Shown here in pieces: positions 5,730 to 20,593 of a stretch of 64,000 nt of DNA; the stretch's first letter is position 1; each line of letters begins with the position of its first letter. The stretch covers positions 1,542,544 to 1,606,543 of the forward strand of contig OY839116.1 in the NCBI GenBank assembly GCA_963692775.1, written 5' to 3'. The stretch comes from Dehalococcoidia bacterium. GTDB taxonomy: Bacteria; Chloroflexota; Dehalococcoidia; UBA2979. A program made the position numbers and the translations under genes. The notes under the pieces were generated by a model. That model saw only the letters and a program-made list of their open reading frames with translations. It searched no databases and was not told where the DNA came from.

Positions 5730-6965
5730 TCAGGGCTGGTCGGCGGATGAGAGGAGCGCCGCCACGCGGTCGAGGATGCGGTGCGCGCAGTCGTACTTGG
5801 AGAGGAGCGGCAGCTCGGCGCAGCCGCCCTCGCGGTCGAGGATCACGATGCGGTTCGTGTCGACGGCGAAGCCGGCGTCCTGCGCGCTGACATCGTTCGC
5901 GACGATCAGGTGCGCGCCCTTCGCCGCCAGCTTGTGGGCGGCGTTCTCGATCAGGTCGTCGGTCTCGGCGGCGAACGCGACCTTGATCAGGCCCTCGCGC
6001 TGGATCGAGGCGATCAGGTCCGGGTTGCGCTCCAGCTCCAGCGACCAGTGTTCAAGGCCGCCGCGCTTCTGCTTCCGGTCCAGGGCCGCGCTCGGGCGGT
6101 AGTCGGCGACGGCGGCGGCCATGATCAGCGCGGCGCAGTCCGGGACGTGCGCCTCGAGGGCGGCGAGCATCTCGTGCGCGGTCTCGACGCGCACGACCTC
6201 CGTCGCCTCGGGCGGGGCGAGTTCGGCGCTGGTGATCAGCACCACCTCGGCGCCGCGGTCGCGCGCCGCTTCGGCGACGGCGTGGCCCATCTTGCCGGTG
6301 GAGCGGTTGCCGAGGAAGCGGACGGGGTCGGCGGGCTCGCGCGTGCCGCCCGCGGTCACGGCGACGCGCACGCCGGCGAGATCTCCGTACTCGCGCCCGA
6401 TGCGCGACTTCACGTGGCCTGCGATCGCGGCGGGCTCCATCAGCCGCCCCGCGCCCACCTCGCCGGAGGCGAGCCGCCCCTCGACCGGCCCGATGAACTC
6501 GACGCCGCGCTCGCGGAGCAGGGCGGCGTTGGCCTGCGTGGCGGCGTTGGCCCACATCTGCGCGTCCATCGCGGGCGCGATCAGCAGCGGCCCGCGCATC
6601 GCCAGCGCGGTCAGGGAGACGAAGTCGTCCGCGACGCCGTGCGCGATCCGCGCGATCGTCGAGGCGCTGGCCGGGACGATCAGGTAGAGGTCTGCGCCGC
6701 GGCCGAGTGCGACATGCGGCTCGGCGTGCGGGCCGGCGGTGGCCCAGAGGTCGACGAACGGCTCGCGGCCGGTGATCCCGCGGAAGGTGAGCGGGCCGAC
6801 GAACTTCGTGGCGGCCGCGGTCATCACGACCTCGACCTCGGCGCCCGCCTGCACGAGGCGGCTCGTCACCTCGACGGCCTTGTAGGCGGCGATCGAGCCG
6901 GTGACGCCGAGCACGATCGTGCGTCCGCTCAGCGGCGCCGGCAGCGCGGCGGGCTGCTCGCTCAT
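5730..6965 (-). CDS. coaBC: bifunctional phosphopantothenoylcysteine decarboxylase / phosphopantothenate-cysteine ligase
   Basis: Flavoprotein N-terminus IVLGVTGSIAAYKA plus DFP ligase C-terminal domain; ATG at 6965 overlaps coaX stop (ATGA). Confidence 0.9.
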   Translation of the reverse strand: MSEQPAALPAPLSGRTIVLGVTGSIAAYKAVEVTSRLVQAGAEVEVVMTAAATKFVGPLTFRGITGREPFVDLWATAGPHAEPHVALGRGADLYLIVPASASTIARIAHGVADDFVSLTALAMRGPLLIAPAMDAQMWANAATQANAALLRERGVEFIGPVEGRLASGEVGAGRLMEPAAIAGHVKSRIGREYGDLAGVRVAVTAGGTREPADPVRFLGNRSTGKMGHAVAEAARDRGAEVVLITSAELAPPEATEVVRVETAHEMLAALEAHVPDCAALIMAAAVADYRPSAALDRKQKRGGLEHWSLELERNPDLIASIQREGLIKVAFAAETDDLIENAAHKLAAKGAHLIVANDVSAQDAGFAVDTNRIVILDREGGCAELPLLSKYDCAHRILDRVAALLSSADQP

Positions 6966-7732
6966 CGGTTGGCCTCGTAGACCAGGCGCAGGCCCTCGAG
7001 GTTGAGGTCCTCCTCGACGGCGTCGATGCAGCACGCGACCTCGGCGATGAGCGGGGCGTACCCGCCGGTGGCGATCACCGTGGTGCCGCCGCCGAGCTCG
7101 GCCTGGAAGCGCCGCACCATGCCGCAGATCAGCTCGGCATAGCCGTAGACGATGCCGGACTGCATCGCGTGCCGCGTGTTGCGGCCGATGACGCCGGGCA
7201 TCGCGGGCGGCTCAAGCGCGACGCAGGGCAGCCGCGCCGCGCGCTCGAAGAGCGCGCCGGAAGCGATGCCGATCCCGGGCGCGATCGCGCCGCCCAGGTA
7301 GTCGCCCTCGGCAGAGACCGCGTCGAGGACGAGCGCGGTGCCGAGGTCCACCACGATCAACGGCGGCGGGCGCCGGTCGAGCGCCGCGACCGCGTGGAGG
7401 ATGCGGTCCGGGCCGACCTCGGCCGGGTTGTCGCAGCGAATCGCGATCCCGGTGTCGACGCCGGCGCCGACCACCAGGGGGTCGAACCCGAAGCGTTCGC
7501 GGCAGACGGCGGCGAAGGTGGCCTCGAGGGCCGGCACCGTGGAGGAGAGCGCCGCGCCCTCGATGCGGTCGAGGGGAAGGCCGTTGGAGCACAGCGCCGC
7601 GGTGAGTTCGCGCGCGTAGTCCTCGGCGGAGCGCTCGGCGTCGGCGGGCATGCGAACGCGCGAGGCAAGCCGCGAGCCCTCGTAGACGCCGATCGCGACG
7701 CTGGTATTGCCGATGTCGATGGCGAGAAGCAG
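6962..7732 (-). CDS. coaX: type III pantothenate kinase
   Basis: N-terminus LLAIDIGNTSVAIGVY and C-terminus TVIATGGYAPLI typical of CoaX; no in-frame ATG/GTG/TTG at the conserved N-terminus, start set at CTG 7732 and uncertain. Confidence 0.75.
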   Translation of the reverse strand: MLLAIDIGNTSVAIGVYEGSRLASRVRMPADAERSAEDYARELTAALCSNGLPLDRIEGAALSSTVPALEATFAAVCRERFGFDPLVVGAGVDTGIAIRCDNPAEVGPDRILHAVAALDRRPPPLIVVDLGTALVLDAVSAEGDYLGGAIAPGIGIASGALFERAARLPCVALEPPAMPGVIGRNTRHAMQSGIVYGYAELICGMVRRFQAELGGGTTVIATGGYAPLIAEVACCIDAVEEDLNLEGLRLVYEANR

Positions 7733-11147: not shown

Positions 11148-12029
11148 GTGCAGGGCATCGCGATGAACGCATTGCGAGCGCGTCTTGCGCGCTACCTCTT
11201 CAAATCGACCGACCCGAGGCGCACGGGCCTGAGCTGGTGGGACGCCTCGGAGCTGGGGCTCGTCGCGCTCGGGTTCCTGCTCTACTTCCTCGTGCGCGGC
11301 GCGGTGGTGGACCGCACCGCCGACGCCTTCGCGAACGCGCACTGGATCGTGAACCTCCAGTACTCGTGGGGGCTCTTCGTCGAGCCGGCGTTCCAAGCCT
11401 GGGTGCTGGAGTACGAGCTGCTGCGGCGCGCGCTCAACTTCGTCTACTTCTGGATGGACTTCCCGCTGATCGTGGGAGTGGCGCTGGTGATGTTCTGGAA
11501 GCGCCGCAGCGCCTACACGCTGACGCGCGACTCGATCCTGATCTCGGGCGGGATCGCGCTCGTGATCTACTGGCTCTATCCGGTCGCGCCGCCGCGCTTC
11601 CTGAGCGAGTGGGGCTTCATCGACACGCTCGCCGTCTACGACAACCTCTCCTACCAGGCGCAGTCGCTGCAGCCGTTCGTCAATCCCTTCGCGGCGGTGC
11701 CGTCGCTGCACGTCGGGTGGGCGCTGCTGCTTGCCGTCGGCGTGTTCGCGGCGACGCGCAACCCGTGGCTGCGCGGGGCGTCGATCGTCACCTTCGTGCT
11801 GCAATCGGTCGCCGTCGTGGGGACGGGCAACCACTACATCTTCGACGGCCTCGCGGGGCTGGTGGTCTGCGGCGTGGCGCTGGGCCTGACGCTGGCGCTG
11901 CACCGAGGCGGCTACCCGCGGATCCGCTACTGGCTTGGCAAGTGGGCCGGGCTGGTCCCTTCCCGGCCCTCGTTGCCCCGGGCTGCTCGCCCGCGGGCGC
12001 GCGGTCTGCGTCCCGGCGCGCCTTCGTAG
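11148..12029 (+). CDS. PAP2-family integral membrane protein (phosphatase / inositol-phosphoceramide synthase-like)
   Basis: Multi-TM protein with PAP2_3-like conserved SLHVGWALL and HYIFDGLAG motifs. Confidence 0.6.
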   Translation: MQGIAMNALRARLARYLFKSTDPRRTGLSWWDASELGLVALGFLLYFLVRGAVVDRTADAFANAHWIVNLQYSWGLFVEPAFQAWVLEYELLRRALNFVYFWMDFPLIVGVALVMFWKRRSAYTLTRDSILISGGIALVIYWLYPVAPPRFLSEWGFIDTLAVYDNLSYQAQSLQPFVNPFAAVPSLHVGWALLLAVGVFAATRNPWLRGASIVTFVLQSVAVVGTGNHYIFDGLAGLVVCGVALGLTLALHRGGYPRIRYWLGKWAGLVPSRPSLPRAARPRARGLRPGAPS

Positions 12030-12245
12030 GGCTCCGGCCCGAGGGTGCGAGGCCGGAGCGCGCGCATTGCCCCTCGCCGAAACCGCGTGGTAGCGTGTTT
12101 CCGTAGCCGCGGGCGCGAGGATGCGCCAGGCCCGAGGGCAGGCGCCGGAGGGAGCGAGCGGCTATCGCCCGGTCGGGGAAGACCGGAGCGTGTGTGCAGG
12201 CGTGGTGGACATAGCAGCAGAACAGGGACAGACCAGAACCAACGC

Positions 12246-12512: not shown

Positions 12513-12686
12513 CGCACCTCGCCACCCTTCCCCGTCCCGGCGCAACCGACTTGCACGCGAGATGCGCGGCGCTCAGGCACGCGCGTCGGAAGAGGACGAG
12601 GGAGCACTACCGATCCAGACAGCAATCCAGCAGCAGCTACGAACGAGCGGGGCGGCCAGATGCGCGCGCACCCGAGGAAGGCGAGC

Positions 12687-15128
12687 ATGACCAGCGCCCA
12701 GCGACTTGAGACCGAAGAACGAACCTTCAGCACGGAGATCGAGGGCAAGCCCTTCACCGTCGGCGTGGGGCTGCTGGCCCTCAATGCCGCCGCCTCCTGC
12801 ACCGTCCGCTACGGCGACACGATGATCCTCGCGACCGTCGCCGAGGACGACGCGCGCGAGGGCATCGACTTCTTCCCCCTGACCATCGACTTCGAGGAGC
12901 GGATGTACGCGATCGGGAAGATTCCCGGCTCGTTCTTCCGCCGCGAGGGGCGGCCCGGCAACGAGGCGATCCTCGCGGCGCGGATGACCGACCGCCCGAT
13001 CCGGCCGCTCTTCCCCAAGGGCTTCCGCCGCGAGATCCAGGTGGTGCTGACCACGCTCTCGGCCGACCGCGAGAACCCCGCCGACGTCTTCGGCACGACG
13101 GCCGCCTCGACGGTGCTGGGCATCTCCAGCATCCCCTTCGAGGGCCCGGTCTCCTCGGTGCGCGTCGCGCGCGTCGAGGGCGAGTTCAAGGCGCTCCCCA
13201 CCTACGAGGAGATCGAGGAGTCCGACCTCGACCTGATCGTCGCCGGCACCGAGGACTCGATCGTGATGATCGAGGCGGGCGCCAGCGAGGTGCCGGAGGC
13301 CGAGGTGATCGAGGCGATCGAGTACGCCCAGGGCGTGATCGCGAAGCTGAACGCGCTGCAGCGCGAGATCCACGAGGCGCTCGGCCAGGAGAAGGCCTCG
13401 TTCGAGCCGCCCGCCCCGGACACGGAGCTGGAGGAGCGCGTCGCCGAGGCGCTCGTCGGCCGCGACGCCGAGATGCTGGCCGCCGTGCAGGGCGAGGGCT
13501 GGCGCGGCGTCGACGCCCTCGGCAAGGAGGTCCATGCGGCGATCGGCGACGACGAGCTCGACGCCCGCACAGTGCGCAACGCCGTCGAGGGCGAGATCAA
13601 GAAGCTCGTGCGGCGGCGCATCCTCGATGACGGCCTGCGCCCCGACGATCGCGAGATCGAGCAGGTGCGAGGGCTGCACTCCTCGGTCGGCCTGCTGCCG
13701 CGCGCGCACGGCAGCGGCCTGTTCCGCCGCGGCGGGACGCAGATCCTGTCGGTGGCCACGCTCGGCCCGCTCGGCGACCGCCAGCGCCTCGACACGCTCG
13801 CGCCGACGCAGTTCAAGCGCTACATGCACCACTACAACTTCCCGCCCTACTCGGTCGGCGAGGCGCGCTTCCTGCGCGGCCCCGGTCGTCGCGAGATCGG
13901 CCACGGCTTGCTCGCCGAGCGAGCGCTGGAGCCGGTGCTCCCGGACAGCGAGGAGTTCCCCTACGCGCTGCGCATCGTCTCCGACGCGCTGATGTCCAAC
14001 GGCTCGACCTCGATGGGTTCGGTCTGCGGCTCGACGCTGGCGTTGATGGACGCCGGCGTGCCGATCACCGCGCCCGTCGCCGGCATCGCGATGGGCCTGA
14101 TCACCGGCGACGGTGACGACTACCGCGTGCTCACGGACATCGCGGGCATCGAAGACGGCCTCGGCGACATGGACTTCAAGGTCGCCGGCACGGAGCGCGG
14201 CGTGACCGCCATCCAGATGGACGTCAAGCTGCAGTCGCTGCCGGACGGGCTGCTCGAGACGGTCTTCGAGCGTGCGCGCGAGGCGCGCATGACGATCCTC
14301 GAGGTGATGCTCGAGGCGATCGCGGAGCCGCGCGACGAGATGTCGCCGTACGCGCCGCGCGTCGAGCGGATCGAGATCGACCGCGAGAAGATCGGGACGG
14401 TGATCGGCCCCGGCGGCCGCGTTATCAACGCCATCCAGGAGGAGACGGGCTCGAACATCACCGTCGAGGACGACGGCACCGTGCTCGTCGCCGGGACGGA
14501 CGCCGAGGGCGTCCGCAAGGCGATCGACACGATCCGCGGGCTGACCAAGGAGATCGAGGTCGGCGAGGTCTACGAGGGCCCCGTCAGCCGGATCATGGCC
14601 TTCGGCGCGTTCGTCGAGATCCTCCCGGGCAAGGACGGCCTGGTGCACATCTCCGATCTCGCCGACTACCACGTCAACCGTGTCGAGGACGAGGTCTCCG
14701 AGGGCGACGTGCTGCGCGTCCAGGTGATCGAGATCGACAACCTCGGGCGCATCAACCTCACGCGTCTGCAGGAGGGCGACGACGGCAGCGAGCGCGTCGG
14801 CCTTGCCGACGGCGCCGACGAGCCGGAGCGCGAGCCCGCCTTCGCCGGCGGCCGCGGCCGCGGCGGCGGAGGTGGCGGAGGTGGCCGAGGCGGCCCGGGC
14901 GGCGGCCGCGGTCGTGACGGCGGAGGCCGTGGCGGCAACCGCGGCGGCGAGGGTCGCGGCGGTCGTGGTGGCCGCGGCGGCGGCGGACGCGGCCGTGACG
15001 GCGGAGGTCGCGGCGGTTCCGGCGGCGGACGCGGTCGTGATGGCGGCGGCGGAGGCCGTGGTCGTGACGGCGGAGGCCGCGACGGCGGTAGCCGCGGTGG
15101 AGGCGGAGGCGGCGGTCGCCGCTGGTAG
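12687..15128 (+). CDS. pnp: polynucleotide phosphorylase with about 95 aa C-terminal RGG/GGR-rich tail
   Basis: Two RNase PH domains, KH (IGPGGRVINAIQEETG) and S1 domain, followed by a long Arg/Gly low-complexity extension; ATG 12687 with GGAAGG RBS. Confidence 0.9.
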   Translation: MTSAQRLETEERTFSTEIEGKPFTVGVGLLALNAAASCTVRYGDTMILATVAEDDAREGIDFFPLTIDFEERMYAIGKIPGSFFRREGRPGNEAILAARMTDRPIRPLFPKGFRREIQVVLTTLSADRENPADVFGTTAASTVLGISSIPFEGPVSSVRVARVEGEFKALPTYEEIEESDLDLIVAGTEDSIVMIEAGASEVPEAEVIEAIEYAQGVIAKLNALQREIHEALGQEKASFEPPAPDTELEERVAEALVGRDAEMLAAVQGEGWRGVDALGKEVHAAIGDDELDARTVRNAVEGEIKKLVRRRILDDGLRPDDREIEQVRGLHSSVGLLPRAHGSGLFRRGGTQILSVATLGPLGDRQRLDTLAPTQFKRYMHHYNFPPYSVGEARFLRGPGRREIGHGLLAERALEPVLPDSEEFPYALRIVSDALMSNGSTSMGSVCGSTLALMDAGVPITAPVAGIAMGLITGDGDDYRVLTDIAGIEDGLGDMDFKVAGTERGVTAIQMDVKLQSLPDGLLETVFERAREARMTILEVMLEAIAEPRDEMSPYAPRVERIEIDREKIGTVIGPGGRVINAIQEETGSNITVEDDGTVLVAGTDAEGVRKAIDTIRGLTKEIEVGEVYEGPVSRIMAFGAFVEILPGKDGLVHISDLADYHVNRVEDEVSEGDVLRVQVIEIDNLGRINLTRLQEGDDGSERVGLADGADEPEREPAFAGGRGRGGGGGGGGRGGPGGGRGRDGGGRGGNRGGEGRGGRGGRGGGGRGRDGGGRGGSGGGRGRDGGGGGRGRDGGGRDGGSRGGGGGGGRRW
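14815..15125 (+). repeat. coding tandem low-complexity repeat (GGC/CGC-rich) encoding the PNPase RGG tail
   Basis: Reiterated ggcggaggccgtggc / cgcggcggc units seen directly. Confidence 0.7.
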
Positions 15129-15156: not shown

Positions 15157-15182
15157 TTGCGCCCCGCCCCGGCAGGCGGGGC
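15157..15182 (+). terminator. hairpin GCGCCCCGCC-ccggca-GGCGGGGCGC downstream of pnp
   Basis: Perfect 10-bp GC stem just after the pnp stop, followed by agtcgtt; probable intrinsic terminator or attenuator before dapB. Confidence 0.5.
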
Positions 15183-15222
15183 GCAGTCGTTGCGGGCGCG
15201 CGGCGCGGACAGGGGGCAGGCG

Positions 15223-16014
15223 ATGATCCGGGCAGTGGTCAGCGGAAGCGGCAACATGGGCGCGCAGGTCCTCGCCACGCTCGAGGCAGCCGGGGACCTC
15301 GAGCCTGTCGGCGTCATCGAACCGCTCGCGACGGAGGCGGGGGAGCTCGAGGCGGCGAGCGGGGCGACGTACCCGCTGGCGGCCGATCCGGGCGCGCTGC
15401 TCGGCGAGCTGAGTCCGGACGTGGTGGTCGACTTCACGAACGCGGCGTTCACGCCGACGCTCGCCGAGGCCTGCCTCGCGCACGGCGTGCGCCCGGTGAT
15501 CGGCACCTCGGGCCAGCCGGACGACTTCGTCGCGACGCTGCGCGAGCGGCTCGCGGAGCGCGGCCTCGGCGGCGTGGTCGCGCCCAACTTCGCGCTCGGC
15601 GCGGTGGTGCTGATGCACCTCGCGACGCTCGCCGCGCCGCACTTCGACGCCGTCGAGGTGATTGAGCTGCACCACGACGGCAAGGTCGACTCGCCATCCG
15701 GCACGGCCGTCGCGACCGCGCAGTTGATGCGCGAGGCGCGAGGCAGCGACTTCACGCACCGCACGTCGGACCTCGAGGCGGTCGAGGGCGCGCGCGGCGC
15801 CGAGCTGGGCGGCGTCGCGCTGCACTCGGTGCGGCTGCCGGGACTGGTGGCGCACCAGGAGGTGATCTTCGGCGGGACGGGCCAGACGCTGACGCTGCGC
15901 CACGACTCGACGGGCCGCGACTCGTTCATGCCGGGCGTGCTGCTCGCCGTCCGCGAGGTGATGCAGCGCGAAAGCCTCGTCTACGGCCTCGACGTGCTGA
16001 TCGGGCTGGGTTAG
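15223..16014 (+). CDS. dapB: 4-hydroxy-tetrahydrodipicolinate reductase
   Basis: N-terminal Rossmann VVSGSGNMG, DapB core EVIELHHDGKVDSPSGTA. Confidence 0.9.
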   Translation: MIRAVVSGSGNMGAQVLATLEAAGDLEPVGVIEPLATEAGELEAASGATYPLAADPGALLGELSPDVVVDFTNAAFTPTLAEACLAHGVRPVIGTSGQPDDFVATLRERLAERGLGGVVAPNFALGAVVLMHLATLAAPHFDAVEVIELHHDGKVDSPSGTAVATAQLMREARGSDFTHRTSDLEAVEGARGAELGGVALHSVRLPGLVAHQEVIFGGTGQTLTLRHDSTGRDSFMPGVLLAVREVMQRESLVYGLDVLIGLG

Positions 16015-16017
16015 GGC

Positions 16018-16194
16018 TCAGTCTTGTGGCAGCGTTGTCGCCGCCGGAGGCGCTGGCACGGGAGACTCGCTTGTCGTGCGGGCTGCCTCGAACCGCTCAA
16101 GGACGCGATCCGCGGCTTGCACGACTTCCTCAAAGGGGATGCGTCCTTCTGAGTACGCGCGGTAGAGGTCGCGAATGCGTGGCTCATCAGGCAT
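16018..16194 (-). CDS. small hypothetical protein (58 aa), translationally coupled to the upstream gene
   Basis: Not in the ORF track (<60 aa). ATGCCTGA overlap with the stop of the 113-aa gene; reads MPDEPRIRDLYRAYSEGRIPFEEVVQAADRVLERFEAARTTSESPVPAPPAATTLPQD; ends 3 bp from the dapB stop. Confidence 0.4.
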   Translation of the reverse strand: MPDEPRIRDLYRAYSEGRIPFEEVVQAADRVLERFEAARTTSESPVPAPPAATTLPQD

Positions 16195-16528
16195 GTGCGG
16201 GTTCCCTCAACGAGATGCGGATGTTCGGTTCGTACCACATTGCCCAGAACCAGTGACGGGGCTCGAGTTCGTGCACCGGACCGGGCTCGACGCCTGCCGC
16301 CGAAACAGCGAGCGAGCGCAATGGCAGGGAGTCGGCCTCCGAGAGATCCTCGATGAGCCAGGCTGTTGCAACATTCGTCCGCGCATGCTCGTACCCGCAG
16401 TCCAGTTCGTGCGCGGAGGCGTACTTGCAGACATCGCAGATTTCGACGATCGGCTCGGAGTGGAACTCAATCACGCCCGGACGTGTCCTTCTGCCCAGAA
16501 TGGCACCATTGTGCGCACACCTTAGCAC
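16187..16528 (-). CDS. hypothetical protein (113 aa, CxxC...C and Trp-rich C-terminus)
   Basis: Minus-strand frame has much stronger GC3 bias than the overlapping plus-strand ORF 16175..16525; lower-GC segment inserted between dapB and asd; GTG start. Confidence 0.5.
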   Translation of the reverse strand: MLRCAHNGAILGRRTRPGVIEFHSEPIVEICDVCKYASAHELDCGYEHARTNVATAWLIEDLSEADSLPLRSLAVSAAGVEPGPVHELEPRHWFWAMWYEPNIRISLREPAHA

Positions 16529-16623
16529 ATCGCACGGTGCATCGGTGGTTCACGTGTCGAGTCCCGCAGCCGGGCACGCCGCCGCCGTCGCACAGCGCGC
16601 CCGCCACGCGATATGATCGGGGC

Positions 16624-17664
<1,041 letters not shown>

Positions 17665-17722
17665 CGGACCGGCAGGGGGCGAGTTGCGCCCACCATCAGG
17701 CAGAGCTCGGCGGAGGTGTGCC

Positions 17723-18619
17723 ATGACGAACGAGATCGGACGCGTGCTCACGGCCATGGTGACGCCCTTCAACGCGGACGGCGTCGACGAGGAGGCGCTG
17801 GGCCGCCTCGCGCGGGCGCTGCTCGCCTCCGGCTCGGACGGCCTCGTGATCACCGGCACCACGGGCGAGGCGCCCTCGCTGAGCATGGAGGAGCAGGTCG
17901 CCGTCTGGCGCGCGGTGCGCGCCGCGGTCGGGCCGGACGCCGGCCTCGTCGCCGGCGCCTCGACGAACTCGACGGGCGAGTCGCTGGAGCTGGTGACGCA
18001 GGGCGCGGACGCCGGCATGGACGCGCTGATGCTGACCGTGCCGTACTACAACAAGCCGCCGCAGGAGGGCCTGGTGCGTCACTTCACGACGCTCGCCGAG
18101 GCGACGCCGCTGCCCTGCATCCTCTACAACGTGCCCTCGCGCACCTCGCTCAACATGGCCGCCGAGACGACGCTGCGGCTGGCCGCCGTGCCGAACATCG
18201 TGGGCGTGAAGGAGGCGTCGGGCGACTTCGCCCAGATCGCCGCCATCCTCGACGGCGCGCCCGAGGGCTTCCGCATGTGGTCGGGCAACGACGGCGACAC
18301 GGCGCAGCTGGTCGCGATGGGCGGCTACGGCGTGATCTCGGTCGCCTCGCACCTGATCGGCGACCAGATCAAGCAGATGGTCACGGCCGCGGCGGACGGC
18401 CGCCAGGACGGCGCGCAGGCGCTGCACGAGCGGCTGCTGCCGCTGATGGACATCCTCTTCATCGAGTCGAACCCGATCCCGGTAAAGTTCGCGCTCAACG
18501 AGGTGGGCGTGACCGCCGGCGAGCTGCGGCTGCCGCTGATCCCGCCCTCGGAGGCCTCGCAGGCCGCGATCCGCGCCGAGCTGGCGAAGCACCGCATCGA
18601 CGTGACGGCGGCGGTGTAG
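17723..18619 (+). CDS. dapA: 4-hydroxy-tetrahydrodipicolinate synthase
   Basis: DapA signatures VTPFNADGVDEEAL, GLVITGTTGE, YYNKPPQEG, VGVKEASGD (Schiff-base Lys). Confidence 0.9.
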   Translation: MTNEIGRVLTAMVTPFNADGVDEEALGRLARALLASGSDGLVITGTTGEAPSLSMEEQVAVWRAVRAAVGPDAGLVAGASTNSTGESLELVTQGADAGMDALMLTVPYYNKPPQEGLVRHFTTLAEATPLPCILYNVPSRTSLNMAAETTLRLAAVPNIVGVKEASGDFAQIAAILDGAPEGFRMWSGNDGDTAQLVAMGGYGVISVASHLIGDQIKQMVTAAADGRQDGAQALHERLLPLMDILFIESNPIPVKFALNEVGVTAGELRLPLIPPSEASQAAIRAELAKHRIDVTAAV

Positions 18620-18638
18620 GCCGCGCTACGGGCGCGGC
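18620..18638 (+). terminator. hairpin GCCGCGC-tacgg-GCGCGGC immediately after the dapA stop
   Basis: 7-bp GC stem with 5-nt loop followed by gtgtt. Confidence 0.4.
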
Positions 18639-18670
18639 GTGTTAACCTCGGGGCGGGGACGGGAATAGGC

Positions 18671-19300
18671 ATGCTCGATCGAGAGAAGTTCGACCGGGTC
18701 TTGGCGGCGGTGGAGGGTCTCGTAGTTGCGAATGAGTGCTTTGTGCTGCTCCGGCCACCGTTTGGCGCGGCGCTCGAGGTTCGCAACCGCGCCCCAATCG
18801 AGGCACTGACTGAGCATGGGATCACCCTGGCGGAGCGCGAGGAAGGGGTCGATGACATCACGATGCTGATGTGGGCGGCCTTGCTCGATCGTGTCGATGA
18901 GTTCATCGGGCACAGGGTGTCCGAGGACGAGGCGGGGGATTCGGAAGAATGGCAGAGTCGGGCTGAGGCCGTCACGCAAGGGCTGGTCGACGACGGACTG
19001 CGGAGCCGGTATCGCTTGAAGCGACTGTCGAAGGCTCCCGCCTTCACGGATATCGACTGGGACGTCAAGGTGAAGGTTGACGACGCTGGCGAGTCGGATC
19101 TCCAGCCGTTTCCCTATGTGACGGTCAAGCTGAAGTTCCAGCGTGACTTCGGCGACGAGCCGTTCTGGCTGGGAGGCACAACCGTGGACTCTGTGCAGGT
19201 CAACTTCAGCACCGAGGAGTTGGAGTACGTGATCCACTCGCTCCAGCGGTCAAGGGAAGCGATCGTTCGAGTTGGAGAGAAGCTCTCCACATGGCGTTAG
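18671..19300 (+). CDS. hypothetical acidic cytoplasmic protein (209 aa), first gene of a low-GC three-gene cassette
   Basis: ATG preceded by GGGA; about 60% GC versus more than 70% in flanks; no recognisable family motif. Confidence 0.55.
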   Translation: MLDREKFDRVLAAVEGLVVANECFVLLRPPFGAALEVRNRAPIEALTEHGITLAEREEGVDDITMLMWAALLDRVDEFIGHRVSEDEAGDSEEWQSRAEAVTQGLVDDGLRSRYRLKRLSKAPAFTDIDWDVKVKVDDAGESDLQPFPYVTVKLKFQRDFGDEPFWLGGTTVDSVQVNFSTEELEYVIHSLQRSREAIVRVGEKLSTWR

Positions 19301-19716
19301 ACCCGCTCCGATCGCCCCCGGTGCCGATGCCGCCTGCTGTTGGCTGGCGGAAGCTGGAGCCGGACCACCTAGGGCTGTCGGGGGCCTTGCTCGGCAGTAG
19401 CTCGCGACTGCGGTTCCGCTATGAGGCGAACCGCGCGACGGCAGCGCGTCCCGATCCGCAGAGGATACTCAAGCACGGCGCATCGGTGTTCTTTGTCGGA
19501 CTCGTTCTCGCCCTCGGCGCTGCCTTGGTGAGCGTCGCGCTTGGGTTCGTGATTGCGTACTGCGCGACCGGCTTACTCCTGTTGTCCTTCCTTGGTTACT
19601 GGCGCGAAACGGGGCGACCCATCATCGACCCGGGTCGGCTGCTTGTGATGCTGTCGTTCACAGCCGTACTTGCGATCACTTCGGGTGTCGCGGCAGTGGT
19701 ACATCTTCTCGGCTGA
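19291..19716 (+). CDS. hypothetical membrane protein (141 aa, about 3 TM)
   Basis: 10-bp ATGGCGTTAG overlap with the previous gene; hydrophobic helices VFFVGLVLALGAALVSVALGFVIAY and LLVMLSFTAVLAITSGVAAVV. Confidence 0.5.
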   Translation: MALDPLRSPPVPMPPAVGWRKLEPDHLGLSGALLGSSSRLRFRYEANRATAARPDPQRILKHGASVFFVGLVLALGAALVSVALGFVIAYCATGLLLLSFLGYWRETGRPIIDPGRLLVMLSFTAVLAITSGVAAVVHLLG

Positions 19717-19725
19717 CGCGCGTAG

Positions 19726-20052
19726 ATGGATCGTTTCAACACCGCGATCGATGGCTTGACCGCACTCATCCACGCCGCTGTGGATGCTGAGTTCGGGACG
19801 GTGATGGGATTGGTGAACTTTGGGCTGATCCTTGTCGTTTTCCTCGCATACATGAGCGGACGCGCAACTGGCCGTCTCTGGTACTTGGTGATGTGGGTGC
19901 TGGATCGCTGGTGGGGCCCTGCGCCCGATCCACCGCGCACGCCTGCACCGATGCCGTCGTTGACGAAGCTGTTGCAGGATACAGTCGGCTTCTTTCTTTT
20001 CTGTGTCGTGACCGTTAGCATCAGCGCCACGGTCCTGAACCTGTCCGTCTAG
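19726..20052 (+). CDS. hypothetical small membrane protein (108 aa, about 3 TM)
   Basis: Starts 10 bp after the previous stop; TM segments GLVNFGLILVVFLAYM and FFLFCVVTVSISATVL. Confidence 0.5.
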   Translation: MDRFNTAIDGLTALIHAAVDAEFGTVMGLVNFGLILVVFLAYMSGRATGRLWYLVMWVLDRWWGPAPDPPRTPAPMPSLTKLLQDTVGFFLFCVVTVSISATVLNLSV

Positions 20053-20080
20053 GAAATTTGAGGTTTCGGCAGCCCCGTCG

Positions 20081-20593
20081 CTACCTCGCATCGCGCTCCA
20101 CCACCCACGCCGCCCAGCGCTCGCGCAGCGCGCGGCGGGCGCGGTCGTAGCCGATGCGGTCGCCGTAGTAGCCGCCGAGGAAGCCCGCCAGCCCGCGCCC
20201 GCCGACGAGCAGCACGACGGCGTAGACGACCGTCGCCCAGATCAGGTTGGCGCGCAGGAACGGGACGCCGAGGACCAGCGCCAGCCCGGCGAGGACGGCG
20301 ATGATCAGCCCCGCGTAGGCGAAGGCGTTCACGATCCGGCTCTCGGTCTGCCGCTGGGCGCGCAGCATCTCGATGATCTCCGCGGGCACGGAGTCCACGG
20401 GCGCGCGCTCTCCGGTGTCCGTGGCGCAGTGCGGGCAGACTCGGGTCTCGCCGCCGAGCGGGTGGTAGCAGTGGCCGCAGAAGCGCCCGGCGTTCGGTGA
20501 CTCGCCGCGCGTGACGGCGACGAGCAACTCCTCGAGGCGCTCGCTGAACAGCGGGCAGTCGTCGTCCGGCCGGTAGCGCTGCTCCTCGCTCAC
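20081..20593 (-). CDS. zinc-ribbon domain membrane protein
   Basis: CxxC...CxxC ribbon (CPLF...CGHCYHPLGGETRVCPHC) followed by two TM helices; GTG start overlaps the mug stop (GTGA). Confidence 0.55.
   Translation of the reverse strand: MSEEQRYRPDDDCPLFSERLEELLVAVTRGESPNAGRFCGHCYHPLGGETRVCPHCATDTGERAPVDSVPAEIIEMLRAQRQTESRIVNAFAYAGLIIAVLAGLALVLGVPFLRANLIWATVVYAVVLLVGGRGLAGFLGGYYGDRIGYDRARRALRERWAAWVVERDAR

Follow-up and report, generated by a model that had tools for sequence, protein, structure and literature searches.

We have analysed a window of 64,000 nucleotides from a Dehalococcoidia bacterium (contig OY839116.1 of assembly GCA_963692775.1, positions 1,542,544 to 1,606,543 of the forward strand), in which two small overlapping genes, hereafter the large and the small gene, lie on the minus strand between dapB and asd. 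Together with a promoter-like box they form a cassette of ~0.55 kb without mobility genes, which relocates as a unit and may represent a toxin–antitoxin (TA)-like accessory module. Positions refer to the window unless a related locus is named; the related loci and proteins that we compared carry L and P numbers, respectively.

The gene pair between dapB and asd

In the window, pnp (12660..15128), dapB, asd and dapA (17684..18619) are all encoded on the plus strand, and two minus-strand open reading frames (ORFs) lie between dapB and asd. The first, 16187..16528, encodes 113 amino acids (aa) when it is read from its first GTG, and the second, 16018..16194, encodes 58 aa. The initial annotation had described them as a two-gene insertion with a stop/start overlap, and the sequence bears out both reading frames, their overlap at 16187-16194 and their position between the end of dapB (16014) and the start of asd (16624). 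The length given for the first product, on the other hand, has to be corrected from 113 to 95 aa, counted from the GTG at 16474. All 25 homologue clusters begin at a Met or Val equivalent to this codon, conservation ends upstream of it, and the DNA of close relatives retains just a promoter-like block there, without a reading frame. The features are as follows.

16187..16474, minus strand: large gene, 95 aa, GTG start at 16474 and TGA stop at 16187-16189 (homologue starts, dN/dS, third-position substitutions)
16018..16194, minus strand: small gene, 58 aa, ATG start at 16192-16194 and TGA stop at 16018-16020 (59 related clusters, dN/dS)
16187..16194, minus strand: start/stop overlap ATGCCTGA of 8 nt, the translational-coupling junction
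16519..16527, minus strand: extended -10-like box TGCTAAGGT (TGnTAnnnT), conserved in the relatives of context (a) below and travelling with the cassette
16510..16519, both strands: palindrome TGTGCGCACA at the predicted transcription start, directly after TGCTAAGGT; candidate operator
16486..16490, minus strand: Shine-Dalgarno-like AAGGA, 11 nt 5' of the large-gene GTG
16203..16208, minus strand: Shine-Dalgarno-like GAGGGA within the last large-gene codons, 8 nt ahead of the small-gene ATG
15157..16014, plus strand: dapB ORF (probable start 15223), the flank convergent with the small gene
16624..17664, plus strand: asd, the flank divergent from the cassette

The stop codons of the small gene and dapB are 3 nt apart, and a terminator scan of 15900-16700 found no terminator between these two genes. 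At the other end, the start-to-start intergenic region between the large gene and asd spans 149 nt (16475-16623). A 99%-identical large protein (P0001) is present in the protein database and the exact 58-aa product is not, which fits a small gene left uncalled in the source record. In some genomes, apparently also in the one from which the window comes, gene callers have missed the 58-aa partner.

Coding evidence and base composition

We have compared both genes with those of the relatives. The ratio of non-synonymous to synonymous substitution rates (dN/dS) is 0.10-0.28 for the large gene; for the small gene, over its first 37 codons, it is 0.09-0.28. In the comparison with L001, the substitutions at codon positions 1, 2 and 3 amount to 4, 1 and 13 in the large gene (first 45 codons), and to 4, 4 and 17 in the small gene. 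Both genes are thus real and under purifying selection, and coding on the minus strand, as assumed from the beginning, is confirmed by this dominance of third positions, by the dN/dS values of about 0.1-0.3 and by the homologues of both products.

Alternatively, the segment could be a non-coding spacer or a regulatory RNA, or the real gene could be a plus-strand ORF of 116 aa (16175..16525). That ORF does exist, and the segment does lie upstream of asd. Nevertheless, the substitutions concentrate on the third positions of the minus strand, both minus-strand products are conserved across unrelated genomic contexts, the plus-strand ORF has no family match in Pfam or NCBIfam, and Rfam gives no match over the whole window, nor at E<=1 in a sensitive scan of 15900-16750. 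Because of the dN/dS values, the third-position substitutions, the empty Rfam searches and the lack of a family match for the plus-strand ORF, we regard these readings as refuted, with a practically negligible probability left to them. The plus-strand ORF is not the gene and the segment is not a conserved non-coding spacer, these being the two outcomes that the initial annotation had set against its own gene model.

The segment had also been described as lower in GC, and it is. Its GC content is 0.62-0.65 over 16000-16600, compared with 0.72-0.76 in the flanks (0.70-0.76 in the region), and the GC content at third codon positions (GC3) is 0.76 in the large gene and 0.64 in the small gene, compared with 0.93-0.97 for pnp, dapB and dapA. 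In all 8 relatives measured, the cassette has a GC of 0.60-0.64 while the locus has 0.67-0.73. Since the GC is low in each of them, it should be intrinsic to the cassette and gives no sign of recent transfer. We have therefore rejected recent horizontal transfer as the source of the low GC, the cassette being equally GC-poor in all measured lineages, vertically inherited ones included.

Insertion and exchange at the dapB-asd site

A metagenome scan with DapB gave 80 loci, none of which has the cassette. In the 50 loci that carry both dapB and asd, the gap between the two genes is shorter than 60 nt in 32 and 60-260 nt in 13, and other genes are inserted in the remaining 5. This confirms the proposal that the pair is an insertion, since 45 of the 50 loci have a gap of no more than 260 nt without the cassette, and judging from these gaps the ancestral state is a contiguous pnp-dapB-asd-dapA cluster.

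The site has been used by more than one kind of insert. Two relatives, L015 and L025, are ~96% identical over asd/dapA and over HAD/dapB, and yet at the same junction and on the same strand L015 has 821 bp of the cassette and L025 has 848 bp of a different two-gene cassette. The insert in L015 (5847-6667) consists of the large gene, the small gene and a second copy of the small gene. In L025 (1558-2299, minus strand) it encodes a DUF5678-like protein of 97 aa and a protein of 148 aa resembling the clan AA (retropepsin-like) aspartic proteases, both similarities being below threshold. In addition, a HicB-family antitoxin (PF05534, E 1.4e-11) occupies the dapB-asd site in L031. The dapB-asd site is therefore a swap hotspot, where cassettes are exchanged at strain level between fixed housekeeping flanks.

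As for the flank itself, asd is apparently leaderless in the window (16607-16626), with TATGAT 7 nt before its ATG at 16624. In cassette-free relatives (L027 865-1005, L028 954-1124, L037 4789-4936, L047 678-785), dapB and asd are separated by 107-170 nt, and this spacer has, in order, a -10-like box resembling that of the window, a GC-rich hairpin that is conserved (GCCGCC...GGCGGCGTCT), and a Shine-Dalgarno sequence. This arrangement may be a small leader element, for which the window gives no Rfam match.

Relocation of the cassette

When 185,579 species-representative genomes were scanned with a pattern, 14 loci were obtained, which are labelled as Dehalococcoidia (12), Chloroflexi (1) and Actinomycetes (1). 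With metagenomic contigs included, the cassette occurs in at least 8 unrelated contexts in metagenome-assembled genomes (MAGs) of Dehalococcoidia type, listed here with their genes in order.

(a) asd, cassette, (HAD), dapB: window, L001-L006, L011-L017, L105, L111
(b) leuA, cassette, Fic: L008, L009, L020, L022, L023
(c) PIG-L, cassette, metallophosphatase: L007
(d) glnA, cassette, glnA: L112
(e) cassette with a downstream thiolase: L010, which has an FMO-like gene before the thiolase, and L021, which has an ABC-transporter permease upstream
(f) RsgA, cassette, ECH: L018
(g) rpsL-rpsG, cassette, PIG-L-like: L024
(h) NrtR, cassette, NadA: L108, L109

Between L007 and L112, an identity of 88% extends across 524 bp, which is the cassette only; the flanks are unrelated, and the promoter box TGCTATCGTGC just 5' of the cassette is common to both. 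Likewise, L108 shares with the loci of context (a) the promoter box, the palindrome and the genes, and nothing else. The relocating unit is thus the cassette of promoter plus two genes.

Some neighbours in these contexts deserve a remark. A PIG-L/LmbE-family deacetylase gene adjoins the cassette in two otherwise unrelated contexts (L007 4019-4888; L024 about 6522-7200), which may be a coincidence. In L008 (1347-1989, 5487-6551), the gene after the cassette encodes a class II Fic protein with a STRIEG motif of its own and a C-terminal region resembling a winged helix-turn-helix, and a PIN-domain pair (VapBC-like) lies 3 kb upstream.

Predicted signals for transcription and translation

Most lineages have retained the TGnTAnnnT box, and where the cassette has relocated to an unrelated context the box has moved along. 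It reads TGCTAAAGT in L108, TGCTATCGT in L007 and L112, and TGGTACAGT in L008. Its promoter function is putative, since a strict sigma-70 scan of 15900-16700 gave no promoter match. The 5' untranslated region (5'UTR) of the large gene is ~35-45 nt long. The position of AAGGA is taken by GAGGG or GGAGG in the relatives, and the counterparts of the small-gene Shine-Dalgarno sequence are GAGGAGG, AGGGGA or GAGAGGAG. Several cassette 5'UTRs (L018 about 1180-1225; L019; L013, L015, L016) also have a perfect GC-rich hairpin just 5' of the Shine-Dalgarno sequence, which is CCCTCGCCGC-AACT-GCGGCGAGGG in L018 and could modulate translation of the large gene.

The palindrome TGTGCGCACA is perfect, as had been noted, and occurs once in the window, but it does not lie at the 5' end of the large gene. 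With the start corrected to the GTG at 16474, it falls outside the gene and into the promoter/5'UTR. Its core GTGCGCAC is kept in L001, L004, L005, L017 and L108, while L012, L015 and L105 have GTGCAC, L007 has GTGC-TG-GCAC, and the palindrome is degenerate (GTGCTCAG) in L013 and L016. Since 10-bp palindromes are not rare, ~60 of any kind being expected per 64 kb, the weight of this one comes from its conservation. A role as operator is plausible but weakly supported, because the core varies among lineages and the 8-mer shows no enrichment within the window.

If the palindrome were an operator for the neighbouring gene, the pair could be local transcription factors controlling a divergent biosynthetic neighbour (asd-dapA here; leuA or glnA elsewhere). 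The cassette is indeed divergent from asd in the window, leuA in L008, glnA in L112 and rpsL in L024, the large protein has a CxxC/His motif, and the palindrome in the intergenic region is conserved. However, divergence in 4 of 8 contexts is the level of chance, promoter and palindrome move with the cassette instead of with asd, and cassette-free relatives have the same TATGAT-type box before asd. Moreover, a ~96%-identical genome carries an unrelated cassette instead, and the net charge of the large protein, -4 to -10, is poor for DNA binding. We therefore consider local control of the neighbour highly improbable, and return to the TA-like module with the evidence on how the two genes are kept together.

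Pairing and decay of the two genes

At all 18 distinct loci with an intact large gene, this gene is followed by the small gene, with an overlap of 1, 4 or 8 nt. In the 15 intact relatives that were first examined the genes overlap throughout by these lengths (ATGA, GTGA, ATGnnTGA), and the overlap is also present in L024, L105, L111 and L112. This conserved overlap agrees with the initial view of a translationally coupled two-gene unit.

We have also observed loci where the large gene is lost. It is broken by a nonsense mutation in L017 and by frameshifts in L022, L023 and L108/L109. At the dap site of L106 (3050-4153), L107 and L110 (3094-4174), it is replaced by an 84-aa protein without a family match and a dCTP-deaminase-like (DCD-like) protein (PF22769; TIGR02274 at 85.9 bits, compared with an equivalog cut-off of 92.8 bits). 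The small gene is kept in these three loci, as is a promoter-like box of similar sequence (TAnnGTGC), and their arrangement may reflect an effector swap that retained the same small partner. The small gene is intact in all loci with a broken or replaced large gene, and no intact large gene without a small gene was found among the loci examined. In addition, the small gene is found in tandem in L015 (intact) and L013 (partial), and L017 has a second match to it.

The replaced loci bear on a further explanation, in which the cassette serves defence or counter-defence (against phages of the host, or as a unit of phage or mobile-element origin), with the small protein as a portable regulatory partner of alternative effectors. 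Nucleotide-depleting deaminases are one known kind of defence effector, and in L106/L107/L110 the promoter-like box and the small gene are retained with a divergent dCTP-deaminase-like protein; the variable hotspot is also one that TA-type cassettes share. Against this, PADLOC and PHROGs give no matches, no relative is found in IMG/VR or in the phage and plasmid collections, and the neighbours are housekeeping genes instead of defence islands. The DCD-like gene may moreover be a mere metabolic paralogue. Such a role in defence is improbable in our estimation, and the TA-like module is again the reading against which the two proteins are considered below.

The large protein

A search of 5.8 billion proteins gave 25 clusters related to the large protein, nearly all of 94-98 aa. 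An exhaustive profile (hidden Markov model, HMM) search of 1.84 billion representatives gave 21 matches, ~15 of which added more distant members; the two longest matches, P0036 and P0047, were rejected as spurious repeat proteins. Since this exhaustive search returned no more than 21 matches, the family is genuinely small.

All members of the family are acidic, with an isoelectric point (pI) of 4.7-5.8 and a net charge of -4 to -10; the pI is 4.8 in the window. In the numbering of the 95-aa protein, the invariant or near-invariant residues are C13, C16, E29, H30, D43, G61, P64-G65-P66 and P72-R73-H74-W75-x-W77-A78. Among them H74 is the sole residue invariant in all 38 aligned sequences, C13, C16 and H30 are kept wherever an aligned sequence reaches these columns, and conservation is highest in the HWFWA motif. 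In the CxxC...C cluster of the initial annotation, the CxxC is conserved and the third Cys varies across the alignment.

We have built an AlphaFold2 (AF2) model from the 38-sequence alignment, with a mean per-residue confidence (pLDDT) of 91.6 and a predicted TM-score (pTM) of 0.81. It has helices at 14-21, 26-45, 52-55 and 72-81 and a short hairpin at 59-69, and places C13/C16, H30 and H74 each at the N-terminus of a predicted helix. Conservation and model together suggest that C13, C16, H30 and H74 could form a structural zinc site of C2H2 type. Foldseek with this model finds no match in the PDB (none better than E=4) or in BFVD, and a profile search of solved structures returns just C2H2 fingers and SATB1, at E>0.1. 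A cytidine-deaminase-like identity based on the CxxC and EH motifs was considered and rejected, because neither the motif order nor the modelled fold would fit.

The small protein

The search with the small product alone gave 3 matches, and 59 clusters were reached with a profile. All are 44-65 aa long except two fused double copies of 115 aa (P0050, P0051). The small protein has a conserved N-terminal helical hairpin (residues ~5-38), with helices predicted at 7-15 and 21-42, followed by a variable, disordered tail rich in Pro, Ala, Ser and Thr (pLDDT about 50). It is hydrophilic, and mostly acidic to near-neutral. A profile search of solved structures returns just ribosomal protein bL9, at E>0.1. 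Double copies of the small gene are fused naturally in P0050, P0051 and L105, which suggests that the small protein may act as a dimer.

From the character of the two proteins, a harmless role can be argued as well. They would then be a lineage-specific protein-binding pair, in which a regulator or adaptor containing zinc works together with a small co-factor that is helical and dimeric, and would be kept to modulate a host process and not for addiction. Both proteins are acidic and show no signature resembling a nuclease or any other enzyme; selection is strongly purifying, and the dap-site clade has long retained the cassette by vertical descent; the cassette is apparently single-copy and is not found in plasmid, phage or viral collections. 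By analogy, the pair might be comparable to the small acidic proteins of anti-sigma type or those that bind RNA polymerase. Such a role would not predict that ~96%-identical genomes can have the cassette or lack it, an unrelated one then taking its place, or that mutations have repeatedly broken the large gene and spared the small one. The GC is also atypical in every genome measured, and across the 8 contexts there is no sigma factor or other consistent neighbour. Overall, we consider a harmless pair rather unlikely.

Comparison with known families

Neither peptide had been assigned to a family at the outset, and Pfam, NCBIfam, PADLOC and PHROGs agree with this. Like the toxin-first type II TA operons higBA, hicAB and mqsRA, the cassette has two small genes with the larger, effector-like one first, a start/stop overlap, a palindrome at the promoter, and a patchy, mobile, intergenic lifestyle. 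Unlike RelE/ParE-like HigB, HicA and MqsR, the large protein is acidic where those first proteins are basic, and it has no sequence or fold similarity to them. Unlike HigA, HicB and MqsA, the second protein has no helix-turn-helix (HTH) or ribbon-helix-helix (RHH) domain and is much shorter, with about 37 structured residues. The HigBA markers (PF05015, PF05973; HTH_3) match neither product, and the same resources do detect a genuine Gp49+HTH pair in L001; the HicAB markers (PF07927; PF15919, PF05534) give no match either, and the same Pfam library finds the real HicB at the site in L031. A kinship with higBA/hicAB is thus not supported, as there is no family above threshold, no Foldseek match in the PDB and no DNA-binding domain, and the large protein is acidic.

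Pairs of the tomB-hha and ghoST type (~100 aa and then ~60-70 aa) are also similar, without homology, in their size order, the cassette having about 95 aa followed by about 58 aa, and in a short second product that is all-helical. In those pairs it is the second product that acts as the toxin (a membrane peptide in the case of GhoT, an H-NS partner in that of Hha), whereas here this product is hydrophilic, and the decay pattern suggests that it must be kept.

Among short helical hairpins, the small protein resembles VbhA/FicA, the SHOCT-like DUF1707 and DUF7795 in the generic pattern helix-G-[RK]-[ILV]-x-[FL]-[ED]-x-[VL]-helix. The VbhA profile (PF18495) matches just the fused double copy P0051, at 20.5 bits against a cut-off of 25.9 (E 4.8e-4). 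DUF7795 (PF25071) reaches at best 25.2 bits, again with P0051, against a gathering threshold of 27, over profile positions 4-36 of 123 and with no match for the window protein. DUF1707 (PF08044) matches one member only, at 13.8 bits (E 0.062) against a gathering threshold of 27.6. In all 19 small proteins, the Fic-inhibitory motif (S/T)xxxE(G/N) is absent. The L008 Fic protein needs no separate antitoxin, because it is self-inhibited by its own STRIEG motif, and Fic is missing from the other seven contexts. The small protein as a Fic antitoxin was rejected on these grounds.

The large protein resembles C2H2 and other short zinc modules in having a CxxC at a helix N-terminus and invariant His residues, and it gives weak profile matches to C2H2 fingers, rubredoxin-like domains or phage zinc-binding domains (E 0.04 to 5). 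A classical C2H2 finger (C-x2-4-C-x12-H-x3-5-H, beta-beta-alpha) is different from its arrangement C13-x2-C16-x13-H30, with H74 44 residues further on; no conserved His occurs 3-5 residues after H30, and the C2H2 profile matches in the PDB have E values of 0.8-5. Short zinc modules also differ from it in general, as it is a helical protein of ~95 aa without a Foldseek neighbour. The cassette does not belong to the HigBA, HicAB, VbhA/FicA, DUF7795, SHOCT or classical C2H2 families. Our literature search on DUF7795, on DUF5678 with an aspartic protease and on Dehalococcoidia TA systems found nothing useful. We conclude that the family is unannotated and has a confident model without a PDB neighbour, while the kind of element, a small two-gene accessory cassette, is already known.

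A possible toxin–antitoxin-like module

Based on the above analyses, a TA-like accessory module with the large protein as effector and the small protein as neutraliser is the best-supported reading, but it is unproven and we hold it tentatively. The distribution is accessory and patchy with relocation, as seen in the at least 8 contexts, the cassette-only homology of L007 and L112 and the swap between L015 and L025. The two small genes are adjacent, coupled and together at each of the 18 distinct loci where the large gene is intact. A short structured part with a disordered, non-conserved tail is common in antitoxins, and by this analogy the layout of the small protein may be counted in favour. 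A large protein that does harm in the absence of the small one would be expected to leave such an asymmetric decay. The TA analogy drawn in the initial annotation thus stands with respect to architecture and lifestyle (contexts, atypical GC, swapping, HicB at the same site), and its mechanism is unproven.

In such a module, an autonomous cassette with an extended -10 promoter, a short 5'UTR and two overlapping genes would have been inserted between dapB and asd in the ancestor of this Dehalococcoidia lineage. The effector would be an acidic protein of 95 aa whose helical fold has not been seen before and which probably has a zinc site of C2H2 type. Its acidity makes a protein a more probable target than nucleic acid. 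The small protein would be made from the same mRNA by translational coupling, would probably dimerise, and would bind and neutralise the large protein, and the palindrome at the transcription start may serve autoregulation. Zinc binding, the interaction of the two proteins, the identity of the effector, its toxicity and the autoregulation are all inferred in this scheme.

Several observations weigh against it. No membership in a known toxin superfamily (RelE/ParE, MazF/CcdB, PIN, HicA, Doc/Fic, HipA, zeta, GNAT, RES and others) was detected by Pfam, NCBIfam, PADLOC or Foldseek. Pfam, NCBIfam, PADLOC and PHROGs have nothing above threshold for either product or the plus-strand ORF and no toxin or antitoxin similarity. 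To our knowledge the PDB holds all major toxin folds, so that a blank Foldseek result on a confident model counts here too. The usual TA pair combines a basic toxin with an acidic antitoxin; here neither protein is basic, and the large one is unlike RNase-type toxins. The small protein shows no HTH, RHH, AbrB or Phd/YefM DNA-binding domain above threshold. TA families are usually multi-copy and taxonomically broad, while this cassette is narrow and apparently single-copy, with no paralogue within the window and no relatives found in IMG/VR, the plasmid collection (PLSDB) or phage collections, and the dap-site clade has inherited it vertically for long (dS, the synonymous substitution rate, is above 1). 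The asymmetry of decay is not significant alone, as 5 of 5 events in a gene that makes up 63% of the target give P about 0.1 under a length-proportional null, and some of the large-gene frameshifts may be MAG assembly errors.

A more specific and somewhat doubtful version would make it an undescribed, Dehalococcoidia-specific family of TA or defence type, where an acidic zinc effector with a fold absent from the PDB is combined with a ~40-residue hairpin that acts as a portable neutraliser or regulator for different effectors. The portable partner is suggested because L106/L107/L110 keep the promoter and the small gene while the large gene is replaced. We reserve the remaining probability for functions outside the readings listed here.

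Most Dehalococcoidia, like other Chloroflexota, have not been cultured, and little of their accessory gene content has been charted. The cassette offers a compact case of ~0.55 kb that has moved among at least 8 sites and has been exchanged for other two-gene modules at a fixed housekeeping hotspot. Should the large protein turn out to be an effector, the TA and defence repertoire would gain a new fold and a new target class, and the cassette would offer a way of studying how such units relocate without transposases. A harmless large protein would still represent an unannotated family, confidently folded and probably zinc-binding according to the model, which would be worth a family entry.

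Other variable segments near the locus

Further variation is found around the cluster. Right after dapA, the window has a second variable segment of lower GC (0.58-0.64) at 18640-20080. Homology with L011, L012 and L014 ends at about 18621-18638 and returns at 20081, and Pfam gives no match for either of the two ORFs in it, 18671..19300 (209 aa) and 19291..19716 (141 aa). This segment looks like another cassette-swap site. Upstream of rpsO, L001 (9537-10207) and L011 carry a Gp49 (HigB-like) + HTH pair, and the window has only about 34 bp at that junction (12029-12063). This pair represents one more small indel of TA type, again between housekeeping genes and within the same lineage. Finally, the C-terminal tail of PNPase (14800-15128) is a Gly/Arg-rich, RGG-like low-complexity stretch of ~110 aa with a GC of 0.83-0.86, and the length of PNPase ranges from 806 to 844 aa among the relatives, which suggests that the tail has been expanding and contracting.

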